Source: Escherichia phage usur. From it: a DNA stretch of 41,906 nucleotides. The first letter of the stretch is position 1, and each line of letters opens with the position of its first letter. Positions 1-41,906 of this stretch are shown one piece after another. The stretch lies in the sequence record MN850624.1. The stretch is one strand, 5' to 3'. A model generated the notes under the pieces. The model ran no database searches and was not told the DNA's origin. It was given only the letters and a program-made list of their open reading frames with translations. Position numbers and translations under genes: made by a program.

Positions 1-39
1 CACCCACGGCCTGTTCAATGTGTCAGCTTTCAGATGCCC

Positions 40-4377: not shown

Positions 4378-6750
4378 TTAGATATAAGTGACCGGGTACG
4401 TCGCGGCAAGCTGAGTCCCAGCAGGGATAGCCGTAACGAGCGCCGGGGTAATGTCGATGCGTACCGGGTTCCCGATGTTGTTGTCCACCTGATAAGGCGC
4501 ACGAACCACCGTAACCGTCAGTGGCGCACCACCAGCGCCAGCGCCCGGCACCTGTAGACGAGTACCAGCCGAGATAGGCTTATGGTACAGCCACGAGGTG
4601 GAAGCCTGAGTACCAGCCGGAGTCAGGTTCTGCTCAAGATACGTCTGGCCAGCGGCAGCAGCACGCACCTTGAAGTTGTTCCCATCATCCGGGATATACG
4701 CACCGAAGCCTGTCACGATGAAGTTGCCACCTGAGCCGTCAGTCTTAAACAGCACCGTCCCCTCGCAGAACTCTTTACCAGTCGGGAACTCCCCACCAGT
4801 CAGGGTTGCAAGGTTATTCGGTAGCGTGTACATGCGGTTGACCGGAGACAGGATGACGCCTACGTTACCTTGGATGTTGGTGTACGGGATAGCACGCACG
4901 TTGGAGTTCAGCGTGCTGATATCCGAGTAGCGAGCCTTACTGTACAGCGCACCCTCAGTCATGCCCTCGCCGTAGAAGTTCACGTTCACCATGTTGAGAA
5001 CAGTCTTCTTGCGCGGGTACAGACCGTTGGATGAAGTGCCGCCGCTGGAGTCATCGCCCACAGCATCGAACACCACCCCGGTCACGTTGGTCATATTCAG
5101 CAGCGTTGCCACGCCGAACAGACTCATCGTATGACAGTGGATGTTTTCCAGATGGTACGTGTTGTTGTTCACGTCATCAGAGCCAACGCCAGCATAGAAG
5201 CGTCCGGTACGGGTCTGCACGTTGCGCACAGTCATGTCAAACGAAGGACATGCCGCGCCCGGCGTACCGCCTGCACCTGCTTGGTTCGCACCCCACTCCA
5301 GCATAACGAGACGAATCGCGTTAGGAGAAGTTGCGCCAGTGTTGATTGGCTCACCAGCCACGCCATCAATGGTCATTCGCTTGCAGCCGTAGGTGATTAC
5401 ACCTGCCGCCGTCAGGCCAGTGCCAGTTGACACAGCGAGGTCAGGGTTACAGAACACGTTCTCACACACGCTGTCGCGGGTAACTTCGAAGTGGACAACC
5501 TGACGCACGCCACGCGGAGCATGGACGTTACGGACTACCACGTTCTTGGCGTACTGCGTTTCAGCAGCATCCCAACCGAACGGGCCTTGGCCAGCAATAC
5601 CAATGCCGATACCCCAGTTGGACAGGGGGATAGGAGCGGTCGTACCGTCGAGGTCTTCAAGGTAGATGTTCTCAATCAGCAGGCCACCATCATAGTGCTT
5701 GTTGATTACGTTCATCTCAATGCCGTCACCCAGCATGTTCATCATAGCGATGTTGCGGATAACGCCGTTCTCGATAGCCTCACCCGTACCCTGCTGGAGA
5801 ATACCGAACTTGCCATTGCGGTGGATACCGTTCTCAATGACGTAGCTGCCCCCGGCGATGTTACCTTGGAACAGGATGCTCGCTACCTTGGAGTTCGATG
5901 GCGCACCAGTGAACTCGTAATCGGAGATGCGAACCTTGCCACCCCAGTAACAGACACGGACAGTGGAGGCTTTGAAGTCACGGAACGTGGAATCCAGCAG
6001 CCGGATATCAGCCGTACCGTTCCAAGTGCCGCCGACAACCTCGATACCGTCCATCAGGACAGTGGAGTTGACAGTACCGACCCAGCCACGGGCATCCACA
6101 GTCTTAGCGTTAGCCTTGGCATAGTCGAAGCACGCTTGTACCGCAGCGGCGATAGAGGCGTACCCGGTGTTGTTGGTGAACTCTGACAGGCATACGGTAT
6201 CCTGACGGTCAAGGAACGTACCGCCGCCCAGTGTACCAATCCACTTACCGCCGTCAGCCATTGCCAAAGCAATCGCCAGTGCGGAGTCAGGGATATCAAC
6301 CAGAGGAATCATGAACGGCTGGCCATTGCTGTCAAAGCCCAGTGCCTTGTTGCGGCGGCCAGCGACGTTCGGTAATGCGTTGATGGAGACTTCGGAGTTT
6401 GGGACACGGACGGCGCGGTCAAGCGGCGCGAGCCATGCTTCCTGAGTTTCCTCAGCCTTGAACAGAATCTGCTCGAAGTTCTCGTCGAGGTTGCTGCCCG
6501 TAAAGGCAGCGTCCTGTCCGAACTTGTTCAGCAGAGTCTCAGAGGTGTAGCGTTGCAAACGGACAATCACCCCGGCAAGCGGGGCGGTGTCAAAGACAAT
6601 CTGTTTGGTCACAGAGTTGTAGGTGTACCCGCTCGTCTGGAGTTCGGAGTTGAGGTACACCTGAATCTGTGTGAACACGCGCTGCTCAAACGTAACGAGG
6701 AACGCGGTCTGCGAGCCGTTCGCCACGTAAGTGTTGTAGCTGTTCGCCAT
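4378..6750 (-). CDS. tail fibre/tailspike with T7 gp17-like N-terminal adaptor and beta-helix depolymerase domain
   Basis: 790 aa; N-terminus 'MANSYNTYVANGSQTAFLVTFEQ...' resembles the T7 gp17 N-terminal domain; central region is Gly/Asn/Thr/Val-rich in a way typical of pectate-lyase-like right-handed beta-helices. Confidence 0.75.
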   Translation of the reverse strand: MANSYNTYVANGSQTAFLVTFEQRVFTQIQVYLNSELQTSGYTYNSVTKQIVFDTAPLAGVIVRLQRYTSETLLNKFGQDAAFTGSNLDENFEQILFKAEETQEAWLAPLDRAVRVPNSEVSINALPNVAGRRNKALGFDSNGQPFMIPLVDIPDSALAIALAMADGGKWIGTLGGGTFLDRQDTVCLSEFTNNTGYASIAAAVQACFDYAKANAKTVDARGWVGTVNSTVLMDGIEVVGGTWNGTADIRLLDSTFRDFKASTVRVCYWGGKVRISDYEFTGAPSNSKVASILFQGNIAGGSYVIENGIHRNGKFGILQQGTGEAIENGVIRNIAMMNMLGDGIEMNVINKHYDGGLLIENIYLEDLDGTTAPIPLSNWGIGIGIAGQGPFGWDAAETQYAKNVVVRNVHAPRGVRQVVHFEVTRDSVCENVFCNPDLAVSTGTGLTAAGVITYGCKRMTIDGVAGEPINTGATSPNAIRLVMLEWGANQAGAGGTPGAACPSFDMTVRNVQTRTGRFYAGVGSDDVNNNTYHLENIHCHTMSLFGVATLLNMTNVTGVVFDAVGDDSSGGTSSNGLYPRKKTVLNMVNVNFYGEGMTEGALYSKARYSDISTLNSNVRAIPYTNIQGNVGVILSPVNRMYTLPNNLATLTGGEFPTGKEFCEGTVLFKTDGSGGNFIVTGFGAYIPDDGNNFKVRAAAAGQTYLEQNLTPAGTQASTSWLYHKPISAGTRLQVPGAGAGGAPLTVTVVRAPYQVDNNIGNPVRIDITPALVTAIPAGTQLAATYPVTYI

Positions 6751-20423: not shown

Positions 20424-20842
20424 TACGGTTTCTCCAAATCAATGAAGCGGTACTCCTGAACGTAAGGCCGCACCATGTGGGAGTAACCGCACCAACGCAC
20501 ACCCTCGGAACGGGCCACGTCTTTGAGTACACGGAGGATGACACGCATCACTCCACGGTTTCTGTACTGGGGCCAGACGTATGAGGCCATAACGACCACC
20601 ATCTCGCCCACATGAATATCGAATAACCTGCCGATGTGAGCAACAGCCATGAGGCTGCCGTCATCGTCAGTGATGTAAACGTCAACACAGCCATTGGCCG
20701 TAGCATCGTACATGCTGTCAACGATTACATCGGGAGATAGGTTCGACCATGGCCGCTCGGCTTGGATGCCCTCGGCCACTGCACGGCGAATGTCAATCGG
20801 CATTGTCGTGTGTGATGTATTTCCCATAGTAGTAGCTTTCAT
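20423..20842 (-). CDS. GNAT-family N-acetyltransferase (putative)
   Basis: 'VWPQYRNRGVMRVILRVLKDVARSEG' matches GNAT motif A (R-x-x-G-x-G/A followed by a helix). No clear RBS for any of the N-terminal Met codons, so the start is uncertain. Confidence 0.45.
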   Translation of the reverse strand: MKATTMGNTSHTTMPIDIRRAVAEGIQAERPWSNLSPDVIVDSMYDATANGCVDVYITDDDGSLMAVAHIGRLFDIHVGEMVVVMASYVWPQYRNRGVMRVILRVLKDVARSEGVRWCGYSHMVRPYVQEYRFIDLEKP

Positions 20843-20843
20843 T

Positions 20844-21110
20844 TCAAATCACTCTTTCGCGTATGAAATCCAGCACGTCCTGCTTACCAGCTTCTCTGTT
20901 GATGAGAGGAAGGTTAGTGTCTATGGTTACTGTCCGGCCAACCTTCTCCCATGTACCGAAGTGCTTTTCCAGTAGAGCTAACTGAGCTTTAGTGAACGTT
21001 ACTCTATCTAATGGAGATTCTTTACCCATACAATCCTCTCTGAGTGGCAGCACCCCCGCCACTGACGGGGCTACCGGTAGCGTGATATCTATCACTATAG
21101 TAGCTTTCAT
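20844..21110 (-). CDS. hypothetical protein (start uncertain)
   Basis: 88 aa ORF starting MKATIVID. The internal Met at 21029 has a strong RBS (AGAGAGGATTGT-ATG) and lies downstream of the promoter-like element, so the real product may be 61 aa. Confidence 0.4.
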   Translation of the reverse strand: MKATIVIDITLPVAPSVAGVLPLREDCMGKESPLDRVTFTKAQLALLEKHFGTWEKVGRTVTIDTNLPLINREAGKQDVLDFIRERVI

Positions 21111-40368: not shown

Positions 40369-40846
40369 AGTTATTTCTCCAGTTGTTGGCTATTTTCAGG
40401 TGGATAGTGAACCCATTGTGACGCGCCGTACAGTCTGCACTCAGTGGCATTGATTGGCTTGTCGGATTCACTACCCTGAAAAATCGCCCCGCCCATTTCG
40501 CGCCGTGGATATTGTCTGCATCCACTCTCAGGAGTCTTCCAGCAGTCCGTCGCGTATCTTGCTCACCGTTGCCAGCTAACAAGCCGTTTGACTACCTACC
40601 CGCTATACTCCGCGCCTTATAAGACGTTTGGTATTGTGCTGATACTGCGCTGCGTCTATCGCGCTTCTCTGTTACCTTGCATCAGGCGCTACCCCTACGG
40701 CGTTAGCATTGTTGCGATACCGTTGCCTTTCGGCGATGCCTCACCCAGTTCCAACCTGCGGCGGATACCCAGTGAGCCGTGACACTACGCGGCCAGTTTG
40801 CGTTCACTCAGAGCAGGATGCTTTCCATCCTTTCAACTCGGTGCTG

Positions 40847-40875
40847 ATTACAACACAGTGTATTCAGCTTGTCAA
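40847..40875 (-). promoter_or_regulatory. sigma70-like early promoter P1
   Basis: On the minus strand: TTGACA (40875-40870), 17-nt spacer, TGTAAT (40852-40847), preceded by TGc (extended -10). Confidence 0.5.
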
Positions 40876-40926
40876 CTACTTTTTACTACTGACTGTCAGG
40901 CTTGCTGCCCTGTCAATCTGGAGCGT

Positions 40927-40955
40927 ATTACAGCATACTCGTTTCATCCTGTCAA
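40927..40955 (-). promoter_or_regulatory. sigma70-like early promoter P2
   Basis: Minus strand: TTGACA (40955-40950), 17-nt spacer, TGcTGTAAT (-10 at 40932-40927). Confidence 0.5.
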
Positions 40956-41063
40956 CCGATTTAATCAGCGCCCGTTCTGAGATGAATAAACCGTACCAGT
41001 TTGCCTGCGTGTGTTTTAACGTCTTTATCAATGACTGTTTAGCTTGCTGGCTGACGTGGAAGC

Positions 41064-41092
41064 ATTACAGCATAGTGAGCTTGCCTTGTCAA
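41064..41092 (-). promoter_or_regulatory. sigma70-like early promoter P3
   Basis: Minus strand: TTGACA (41092-41087), 17-nt spacer, TGcTGTAAT (-10 at 41069-41064). Confidence 0.5.
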
Positions 41093-41167
41093 TACACTCC
41101 AGATTGTTAAAGAGCAGTGTTACCGTCTTGCCACCGTGTAGCGATGTTCTGCTACCCGGCGAGATGA

Positions 41168-41197
41168 ATTACAGCACAAAGCGAATCAGACTTGCAA
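41168..41197 (-). promoter_or_regulatory. sigma70-like early promoter P4
   Basis: Minus strand: TTGCAA (41197-41192), 18-nt spacer, TGcTGTAAT (-10 at 41173-41168). Confidence 0.4.
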
Positions 41198-41229
41198 GAA
41201 TTATTTTCACTGAATAGCTCAAATAGTGG

Positions 41230-41330
41230 ATAAGTTACTGTAATCATTAGGAATAAATATTTGATTGAATAGGTTATTGCATAGGATAGATACCGATATC
41301 AGATAGGTTATAAGTTACTGTAATCATTAG
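41230..41330. repeat. two perfect 20-bp direct repeats (TAAGTTACTGTAATCATTAG) 81 bp apart in an AT-rich segment
   Basis: Exact copies at 41230-41249 and 41311-41330; the second copy forms the 5' part of element C. Confidence 0.8.
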
Positions 41331-41358
41331 ATAATTATGAAAGCTACTATAGTGATAT
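41311..41358 (+). promoter_or_regulatory. conserved element C (plus-strand copy of the promoter-like element)
   Basis: Plus strand reads TAAGTTACTGTAATCATTAGATAATTATGAAAGCTACTATAGTGATAT, about 40 of 47 positions identical to element A but in opposite orientation to all genes, pointing into the T-depleted tract. Confidence 0.35.
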
Positions 41359-41374
41359 GTATCGCTAGATACGC

Positions 41375-41860
41375 AGAGCGAGCGCGGCGCAGCCGAAACA
41401 AGCGAGCGCGGAACGGCAACGGATGGAATCCGACAGGATGACAGGCGGCAGCCAGTGAACGCAGTAGGACAGGTGACACAGTAGCAGAGCATGACGCGCA
41501 GAGCTGGCGGCGCAGACAGTAGACCAGCAGACAGGACAGCACCACGGCAGCACCGCCACCACACAGCACCACACGGCGCAGAGCATCACGGCAAAAGAGA
41601 CAGATACCCGCACGACCGAGCGCAGCACGCAGCACCGCACAGCCAGCGCAGAGCGTCCCCATAGGACAGCACCGCACCGCACAGCCAGCAGGACAGCGCA
41701 CAGCACGCCACACGGCAGACGATGAAACGCGACACGCACGAGCTATACCGCACGCAGGCAATCCTCTTGACGCGCCGCGCAGCGCACGCGAGCAAATATC
41801 GCGCACGTCGCGAGGCTAATCCGCGCACACGCTATGGGGGCACGCGCGGTCATTCGGGTC
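41375..41860. other. strand-asymmetric, T-depleted (plus strand) low-complexity tract; candidate genome-terminus region
   Basis: Over ~450 bp the plus strand is almost entirely A/C/G with quasi-repeats (GCGCAGAGC, CAGGACAG, CACAGCCAGC). All three minus-strand frames are open here, as expected for an A-poor strand. Confidence 0.6.
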
Positions 41861-41906
41861 GAGGGAGGCCCACGCACAAATAGTCAATTTTCAAGCCGGG
41901 GTATTG

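Follow-up and report, generated by a model that had tools for sequence, protein, structure and literature searches.

The genome of Escherichia phage usur (MN850624.1) carries, at positions 41371-41862, a tract that is T-poor on the plus strand and A-poor on the gene-sense minus strand, which raises the question of what kind of DNA this is and what maintains so one-sided a composition. The window analysed here is the whole record of 41,906 nucleotides. Our analysis argues strongly that the tract is a non-coding left-terminal segment, made up of a predicted direct terminal repeat and an adjoining spacer, and that it fills the interval between the physical end of the DNA and a putative outward-facing promoter of the phage's own RNA polymerase, reaching from the predicted physical end to 19 nt downstream of the predicted antisense start. 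As to why such a composition should be kept, the reading that we favour, and that we regard as about an even chance, combines this left-end anatomy with outward transcription of a nearly U-free RNA, stably hybridised to its template, over the terminal repeat.

Composition and position of the tract

The original prediction had described 41375-41860 as almost devoid of T to a degree not expected by chance, and both parts of that description are borne out. There are 32 T in the 486 nt of this interval and 32 in the 490 nt of 41371-41860 (6.5%, against a genome mean of 23%), with a binomial probability for the latter of about 1e-22 (T<=32 of 490 at p=0.229). Among 450-nt windows the genome minimum for T starts at 41367 (5.6% versus a mean of 23.0%, sd 2.6). 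The tract also contains the genome's four longest runs without T (65, 60, 53 and 50 nt), and its AT skew reaches +0.82. The depletion is graded, with 2.9% T in the core (41500-41740), 4.9% in the spacer (41371-41617) and 8.2% in the predicted terminal repeat (41618-41862), where the T residues are concentrated in the outer 100 nt, and the shortfall is made up roughly proportionally by A, C and G together.

The short quasi-repeats noticed earlier are real as well, with CGCAGAGC occurring four times, GCGCAGAGC three times, CAGCAC seven times and CACAGCCAGC twice, all far above composition shuffles and with fewer than 0.5 occurrences expected for each of CGCAGAGC, CAGCAC and CACAGCCAGC. They are dispersed, however, and Tandem Repeats Finder reports only two tiny arrays in the tract (a 14-nt unit repeated 2.4 times and a 7-nt unit repeated 2.1 times). 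An assembly artefact can be discounted because 15 independently sequenced relatives carry the tract with T contents of 6.5-9%.

The minus strand is indeed open in all frames, as had been pointed out, but the plus strand is equally free of stop codons, and it is because both strands lack stops that long open reading frames (ORFs) appear in several frames, of 159, 124, 96 and 80 aa on the minus strand and of 57 and 53 aa on the plus strand. Such ORFs have been annotated as hypothetical proteins in relatives, on the gene strand in forsur (forsur_28), Kc261, HHU8 and Lidtsur and on the opposite strand in glasur (glasur_55), so that annotated coding sequences (CDSs) lie within the tract in forsur (L001, 6466-6981), glasur (L006, 1399-1875), Kc261 (L007, 775-1314), HHU8 (L012, 665-1213), ROV85 (L013, 824-1390) and Lidtsur (L016, 773-1180). 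Against a coding function, the annotators disagree on strand and frame, the gap runs among the 15 genomes are mostly of 1, 2, 7, 8, 10, 11 and 16 nt and break the frame, and the tract ORFs gave no Pfam match above threshold and no PHROG match. We therefore rejected a coding gene, to which we give next to no credence, and the GenBank CDSs look like gene-caller artefacts of the stop-free composition.

The nearest matches of the region are Bonnellvirus (Autographiviridae) phages at 85-95% identity, among them forsur, Kc261, RZ4 and megetsur. The usur record stands in reverse orientation, with all genes on the minus strand, and was opened arbitrarily 44 nt outside the left physical end, relatives showing position 41906 to be continuous with position 1. 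In phage orientation the order is late genes, TerS, TerL, endolysin, tract, AT-rich region, early promoters and SAMase. The boundaries of the usur repeat were placed by homology with phage J8-65, whose repeats are annotated at 1-259 and 40723-40981 and proved identical when the two copies were checked. J8-65 starts with TCGACCCGAAGG, and its right end just before the repeat reads ...GGGCCTCCC; the outer boundary of usur in minus-strand reading is CCTCCC|TCGACCCGAA, that is ...gggcctccc|tcgacccgaatg with its T at 41862, and the inner repeat end of J8-65 aligns at 41617/41618. Because both J8-65 boundaries align, at 41862 and 41618, the predicted repeat of usur is 41618-41862 (245 bp), of which the record holds a single copy and hence no terminal redundancy. 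A block spanning the outer boundary, GGGTCGAGGGAGG (41856-41868), is kept in at least 14 of 15 Bonnellvirus genomes, and variants of this boundary are found in LIMEzero and in the IMG/VR contig L025. The remainder of the tract, between the repeat and the putative antisense promoter, is an indel-rich spacer of 247 nt (41371-41617) with quasi-repeats CGCAGAGC, CAGCAC and GGACAGC.

Following the genome in phage direction one meets the endolysin gene, an 83-nt spacer, the TCGACCC boundary, the inner boundary, the early promoters and the SAMase gene. As a statement of location, the earlier suggestion of terminal-repeat DNA thus stands, since the tract corresponds to the predicted repeat and adjoining spacer and takes the position of the T7 repeat and its G-poor array; we consider the anatomy as described here very probable. 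A part in packaging or ejection, and the strand-asymmetric replication or recombination substrate that had been suggested as a third possibility, are conceivable. At the T7 left end a repeat (160 bp), a strand-biased non-coding array, early promoters and an anti-restriction gene follow in the same order, a leftward promoter is found near the end (host promoter A0 at 224), the top strand has little A in part of the repeat (about 75-150) and a single base is scarce over 146-345 (G 11%). The differences are that the T7 array is G-poor rather than A-poor, that its depletion is much weaker (11% versus 2-6%), and that its leftward promoter is of host type whereas the phage promoter phiOL points rightward. 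The T7 array was reportedly described by Dunn and Studier in 1983 as composed of regular CCTAAAG units; the tract as a regular short-repeat array of this type (7-bp unit) was rejected, as Tandem Repeats Finder finds no regular array.

A putative phage promoter directed into the tract

A genome-wide repeat search recovered CACTATAGTAGCTTTCATAA, the opposite reading of which is TTATGAAAGCTACTATAGTG, and with at most one mismatch TTATGAAAGCTACTATAGTG occurs three times in the genome (0 expected). One copy (21112-21093, minus strand) lies 24 nt after the 810-aa RNA polymerase ORF and a second (35027-35008, minus strand) ahead of the DNA-metabolism (class II) genes; the third, at 41335-41354 on the plus strand, is opposite in direction to every gene and is identical to the first at 20 of 20 positions and to the second at 19 of 20. 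There is also a weaker fourth copy of the motif at 20844 (minus strand). The core, ...CTACTATA|G, contains a T7-like CTATAG, a form shared with T7 and SP6 promoters. We infer that the inverted motif is an outward-facing promoter of the phage single-subunit RNA polymerase directed into the tract, with a predicted +1 at the G at 41352; the first long T-free run begins at 41371. An earlier candidate, ATCACTATAG in minus reading, was dropped, as it has a single copy on the minus strand; what recurs in the genome is its reverse reading.

Each genome has its own version of this motif in at least three copies including the inverted one, namely GCTACTATAG in usur, GTGACTATAG in forsur, GTGTCTATAG in altidsur and GTAACTGTAG in J8-65, while the Lidtsur version, GTAACTG..., recurs in most copies including the inverted one. 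Positions -10 to -7 and -4 vary among usur, forsur, altidsur and J8-65/Lidtsur, and a few copies show further differences. Each lineage also has its own form of the RNA polymerase segment aligned with the T7 specificity loop (residues 739-770), which is among the more variable parts of the C-terminal half of the polymerase; the counterparts of T7 N748 in the five lineages are H, N, N, K and N, and those of Q754 are Q, G, S, A and G. The promoter copies thus appear to co-vary with the polymerase predicted to read them, and particular residues may correspond to particular bases. The ORF that would start from the ATG of the inverted copy is not conserved and meets a stop after 7 codons in altidsur-type genomes.

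Two further observations concern the motif and its surroundings. Its ATG is also the start of the minus-strand ORFs MKATIV... (21110-20844) and MKATTMG... (20842-20423), and CDSs of J8-65 are annotated from it at 5664 and 19870; if transcription begins at the G that follows TATA, the first of these ATGs would fall upstream of the transcript, so that several records may misplace the beginning of the small gene behind the polymerase gene. Upstream of the antisense promoter, in an AT-rich region (41226-41330, GC about 34%) that separates it from the host-type early promoters, exact direct copies of ATAAGTTACTGTAATCATTAG are found at 41230-41250 and 41310-41330 (plus strand), 80 nt apart, and the related ATAAGGTACTGTATTCTTTGAC stands ahead of the late promoter (21140-21113, minus strand). 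These sequences may act as upstream elements of promoters, or as binding sites in a region that resembles an origin and has divergent promoters on either side.

A counterpart of the inverted promoter has been mapped in phage LUZ19, where ONT (Oxford Nanopore Technologies)-cappable-seq identified four phage-specific promoters sharing GGTTATGTCACACACA, two right after the polymerase gene, one in the structural region and one, P001, inverted in the early region (Putzeys et al. 2024, PMC10914365). P001 transcripts cover gp47-49 and reach the right genome end, 15 other Phikmvvirus species keep this arrangement, and P001 was suggested to block elongation into the early genes on circularised DNA (PMC10914365). 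In usur, in four relatives and at other junctions the motif of the phage promoter likewise lies on the non-coding strand, with the terminal repeat on one side and the host early promoters on the other. LUZ19 and phiKMV share with usur the series of terminal repeat, non-coding stretch, opposite-strand phage promoter and host early promoters, with further promoter copies after the polymerase gene, and in phiKMV A is scarce on the top strand all the way from nucleotide 1 to the antisense promoter. They differ in genus and host and in the promoter itself (GGTTATGTCACACACA versus TTATGAAAGCTACTATAGTG in usur), and antisense transcription is demonstrated in LUZ19 whereas for Bonnellvirus it is predicted.

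A top strand with little A between the DNA end and an antisense phage promoter is a feature of 15 of 15 Bonnellvirus junctions and of phiKMV. In phiKMV exact copies of the promoter motif stand at 730-715 (minus strand) and at 20489, 20675 and 34953 (plus strand); the top strand is A-poor from 1 to about 700 (7.3% A versus 20.7% for the genome), and the lowest-A 400-nt window (5.5%) starts at 281, inside the tract. LIMEzero has an A-poor leading segment of about 580 nt followed by the promoter-like sequence ATGAAGGCAAGCACTAAGG (reverse complement), and L025 one of about 640 nt with a promoter-like sequence at its inner edge. LKA1, examined for the tract only, shows it (6.2% A over 400 nt), and KP34 and SP6 have a weaker A-poor leading segment. 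An endolysin-based search returned five loci, the most distant of which (L026) has no tract within its 1.4 kb, and an IMG/VR scan with a 14-mer for the boundary motif gave mostly chance matches and about six relevant loci. What the cases appear to have in common is a T-free strand that spans the interval between the DNA end and an outward phage promoter, the latter being mapped in LUZ19 and elsewhere predicted or promoter-like. Homopolymers of at least 3 nt are scarce (8 versus 30 expected) and purine/pyrimidine alternation is raised (0.64 versus 0.48 expected) in the enterobacterial phages only; because phiKMV and LKA1 show neither, homopolymer avoidance and Z-DNA-like alternation were rejected as the common property.

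The original prediction had also proposed a U-depleted non-coding RNA with CAGGA-type motifs that could sponge an RNA-binding protein. In outline this agrees with the inverted promoter directed into the tract and with its mapped counterpart in LUZ19; the sponge does not hold up. Several CAGGA/GGACAG motifs are present, but GGA is found 8 times in the tract against 13.3 expected from composition, the predicted 509-nt antisense RNA folds worse than 97 of 100 shuffles, and no Rfam family matched at E<=1. The complement folds worse than 98 of 100 shuffles (z +1.9 and +2.2 for the two strands), and no conserved RNA structure is possible because the tract sequence is poorly conserved and full of indels. 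We therefore rejected both a structured RNA and a CsrA-type sponge, in which GGA would stand in hairpin loops as in CsrB, and rate a structured regulatory RNA or a CsrA/Hfq-type sponge as extremely unlikely.

Origin of the composition

Within the tract the sequence drifts and the composition stays. We compared 15 Bonnellvirus junctions and counted variable columns in 12 close genomes. The low T content holds in 15 of 15 genomes, including the clade of J8-65, smaasur and Lidtsur, whose tract interior hardly aligns. Among the 12 close genomes 129 of 480 tract columns (27%) are variable and the flanks are equally so, but the changes in the tract are A/G (43), A/C (46) and C/G (29) rather than C/T (16), A/T (8) and G/T (5), whereas in the flanks C/T (41) and A/G (38) are about equal.

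An interior that evolves at about the neutral rate with many indels is what would be expected of neutral non-coding DNA at the equilibrium of a strand-asymmetric mutation pressure, whether from transcription or from single-strand exposure, and without function in its composition. The polarity of fourfold degenerate sites on the coding strand agrees with this in usur (A 13%, T 29%) and J8-65 (A 13%, T 27.5%), but the skew of the tract is far stronger, with about 3% T in the core, and A, C and G are all raised roughly in proportion instead of one base replacing T. Deamination, whether of a strand displaced by antisense transcription or of a 3' tail, would by inference raise, not lower, the T content of the plus strand. 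The tract edges are moreover sharp at the promoter and at the DNA end in several genera of differing GC content. In phiKMV the top strand has 26% T and 7% A in the tract versus 13% and 9.5% at fourfold sites, i.e. an AT skew of -0.57 versus -0.15 with twice the top-strand T, which argues that the phiKMV tract is not simply neutral DNA. With the skew exceeding that of fourfold sites, clearly so in phiKMV, we rejected a neutral mutational equilibrium, which we consider quite unlikely.

Avoidance of host recognition in the first-entering DNA is a further explanation, in which the composition would remove palindromes containing A and T, EcoKI- and EcoBI-type sites, sigma-70 -10 hexamers of both directions and Dam sites, and leave asymmetric sites in one orientation. 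The tract lies at the end that enters first in T7 (and presumably in usur), upstream of the anti-restriction SAMase gene; it has no EcoKI, EcoBI or GATC site, and its CAGCAG and AGACC sites all stand on one strand. To that extent the earlier claim that it lacks most restriction sites is correct. Palindromes, however, are ordinary in number (two of 6 bp versus 2.6 per average 490-nt window, and 33 versus 26 of 4 bp), GATC (1 site) and CCWGG (0) are avoided genome-wide without strand bias, the next-entering 450 nt of promoter DNA are unbiased and the same bias is seen in Pseudomonas phages, whose hosts have other restriction systems. On the ordinary palindrome counts we rejected restriction avoidance as the main cause and hold it to be very improbable. 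Independently of the tract, the 41.9-kb genome strongly avoids Dam, Dcm and EcoRI sites, having one GATC, no CCWGG and no GAATTC.

The reading that we favour starts from the predicted promoter. The phage RNA polymerase would start at the inverted promoter from mid-infection and transcribe leftward over spacer and terminal repeat; on unit-length DNA it would run off at the end, while on concatemers the antisense transcript would continue past the junction and against the late genes. Because the non-template strand lacks T, this RNA would be nearly free of U and about 59% purine in usur (56-64% across cases). Terminators of T7-type polymerases are of two classes that both need U, one being a hairpin with a U-run behind it and the other AUCUGUU, assisted by a U tract, and every bacterial start codon contains U, while rU:dA is the weakest hybrid pair. 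A U-free RNA would thus be unable to form either terminator class, would have no AUG, GUG or UUG start codon and would form a hybrid with its template without weak rU:dA pairs. The outcome would be unusually processive, hybrid-stable outward transcription through the repeat. This could serve as collision or insulation against late read-through into the early genes of the next unit, as in the idea published for LUZ19 P001, or could maintain the repeat in an open or R-loop state in which ends are replicated, concatemers formed or the repeat duplicated at packaging, or do both. That the composition of the tract is selected through the antisense transcript seems to us plausible at somewhat less than even chance.

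Hybrid energies, calculated with the Sugimoto hybrid and Allawi/SantaLucia duplex nearest-neighbour parameters, support this reading without being decisive. Relative to the DNA duplex the hybrid comes out at -0.125 kcal/mol per nt with the antisense RNA and at -0.019 with the sense RNA, and the phiKMV tract is the genome-wide extreme of this measure (z -4.6). The ColE1 RNA II origin and the promoter-dependent origins of T7 are examples of priming or opening through R-loops. The likeness of usur to such R-loop-prone regions is that the predicted promoter would give an RNA rich in purines and poor in U, with a calculated hybrid stability above that of the DNA duplex, and that an AT-rich region adjoins the promoter; the difference is that the excess of hybrid stability is moderate, and that a persistent hybrid, priming or an origin would be conjecture in usur.

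Several points weigh against outward U-free transcription as the explanation. The excess of hybrid stability is modest in usur (z about -2.9) and the J8-65 tract falls short of being the genome minimum. In Bonnellvirus the promoter and its start are themselves predicted from sequence. The link of composition and promoter is not universal in the family, because T7 has a leftward promoter, A0, and yet its left end is not U-poor in that direction. The selected property could be A-depletion of the top DNA strand rather than U-depletion of the RNA, and since fourfold sites of usur share the polarity, part of the skew could be a genome-wide bias. The tract edge is a physical end, which fits explanations at the level of DNA equally well. 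The published P001 hypothesis is silent on composition (PMC10914365).

A role of the DNA itself in end replication or packaging, independent of RNA, is thus an explanation that we consider doubtful but take seriously. In one variant the T-free strand, which has its 3' end at the left terminus, would lack the T-requiring sites of a DnaG-type primase and so leave a long 3' tail including the repeat for concatemer annealing; in another the composition would serve the terminase or a motor tracking along a single strand. In its favour, the physical end is where the tract starts, the repeat falls inside it, at least three genera share its orientation, and either strand folds less well than its shuffles, as would be expected of DNA that stays unstructured when single-stranded. 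GTC is found 4 times on the plus strand of the tract versus 16 on the minus strand, but primase exclusion would presume that the Bonnellvirus primase uses a T-requiring triplet. The T7 left end has many GTC primase sites on the corresponding strand, the opposite of what primase exclusion would lead one to expect. Nor does a DNA-level role account for the exact coincidence of the inner tract edge with the antisense promoter.

Conserved islands at both repeat boundaries, which resemble processing signals, may be counted in favour of this DNA-level role. The island at the inner boundary, CGGGTATCTGTCTCTTTTG in minus reading (41591-41609, minus strand), lies 9 nt outside the repeat, and its part AAAAGAGA is kept in at least 14 of 15 genomes. 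The equivalent in J8-65 is GGGGCTATCTATCTTTTTT, starting 7 nt past its repeat end, and L025 has two copies of its version of the island, CAATCTCTTTTGC. The concatemer-junction (class II) pause and termination signal of T7 is ATCTGTT preceded by A, C or T, any base change abolishing it, and we take it to lie at the corresponding place beside the T7 repeat. The island is similar in being a conserved T-rich element (TATCTGTCTCTTTTG) on the gene-sense strand just past the inner repeat boundary; it differs in its heptamer, which is ATCTGTC in usur and ATCTATC in J8-65 against the strict ATCTGTT, and the Bonnellvirus polymerase is only distantly related to that of T7. As an exact T7 class II pause the island was rejected (TATCTGTC in usur, CTATCTATC in J8-65), usur being one base off the definition, and ATCTGTY is not enriched in the usur genome. 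We regard the island as a candidate signal for right-end processing or pausing, and as a lead only.

Transcription and end replication could also be connected more directly. The exclusion of one base would then be a selected device: a U-free, purine-rich RNA made outward by the phage's own polymerase would stay hybridised to the top strand and displace the bottom strand of the repeat, freeing it as a 3' single strand, and this opening would enable phiKMV-type phages to join genome ends into concatemers or to duplicate the repeat at packaging. This is an unlikely proposal on present evidence, but if true, linear phage DNA with terminal repeats would have a way of solving its end-replication problem that had gone unrecognised.

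Neighbouring features and meaning for the family

On the outer side of the repeat, the endolysin gene (576-40, minus strand) is the last late gene, and the spacer between it and the repeat (41863-41906, continuing at 1-39, minus strand) holds a hairpin, GCCGTGGGTGCAATACCCCGGC in minus-strand reading (41885-41906 joined to 1-22), which lies between the endolysin stop and the terminal repeat, is flanked by the conserved block GGCTTGAAAATTG and is cut by the record ends. The hairpin is conserved, with length variants in altidsur-type genomes and a shorter form in J8-65, and is probably the late terminator because phiKMV annotates a terminator at the equivalent place.

On the inner side, three to four host-type early promoters can be read by eye on the minus strand at 40850-41200 (TTGACA or TTGCAA, 17 nt, TGTAAT), and the SAMase gene, an anti-restriction gene, follows downstream at 40368-39976 (minus strand). 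The form TTGACA, 17 nt, TGTAAT, preceded by TGC, is conserved in all relatives and in LIMEzero, where the equivalent sites are annotated as host promoters. A scan for the sigma-70 consensus detected none of the early promoters visible by eye, because the scanner requires A at position 2 of the -10 hexamer, a usually essential base that TGTAAT lacks. The early promoter region of Ec1-ASingh has an insertion of about 85 nt between the equivalents of 41121 and 41122, and SS-2025 has a similar one judging from match coordinates; the other junctions have no insertion.

Elsewhere in the genome, the Chi sequence GCTGGTGG occurs 10 times versus 2.8 expected, a count that no shuffle reached. All copies are on the gene-sense strand (minus-strand positions 1485, 2931, 4320, 4529, 14917, 15761, 16136, 23849, 24285 and 30779), and so face the way in which RecBCD coming in from the right genome end recognises them; none of the 10 lies in the tract.

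Terminal repeats and the DNA adjoining them are the least understood parts of T7-like genomes, and annotation pipelines often call hypothetical proteins there; the ORFs that several GenBank records place in this region appear to be artefacts of a stop-free composition. A T7-like genome end with a phiKMV-type antisense promoter was known already, while the exclusion of a single base we found undescribed: our literature search returned no paper on it, and the LUZ19 study does not mention composition (PMC10914365). Like LUZ19 with its mapped P001, the Bonnellviruses appear to point one copy of their own promoter outward. Between a promoter or promoter-like sequence and the DNA end, Bonnellvirus, phiKMV, LIMEzero and one related contig keep a segment almost free of one base while its sequence turns over, and LKA1 has the same tract. 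The antisense transcript would thereby gain a testable property, being U-free, without known terminators, untranslatable and stably hybridised. For phiKMV-type genomes that have been assembled as circles, the bias offers a practical marker of the left end and of orientation.

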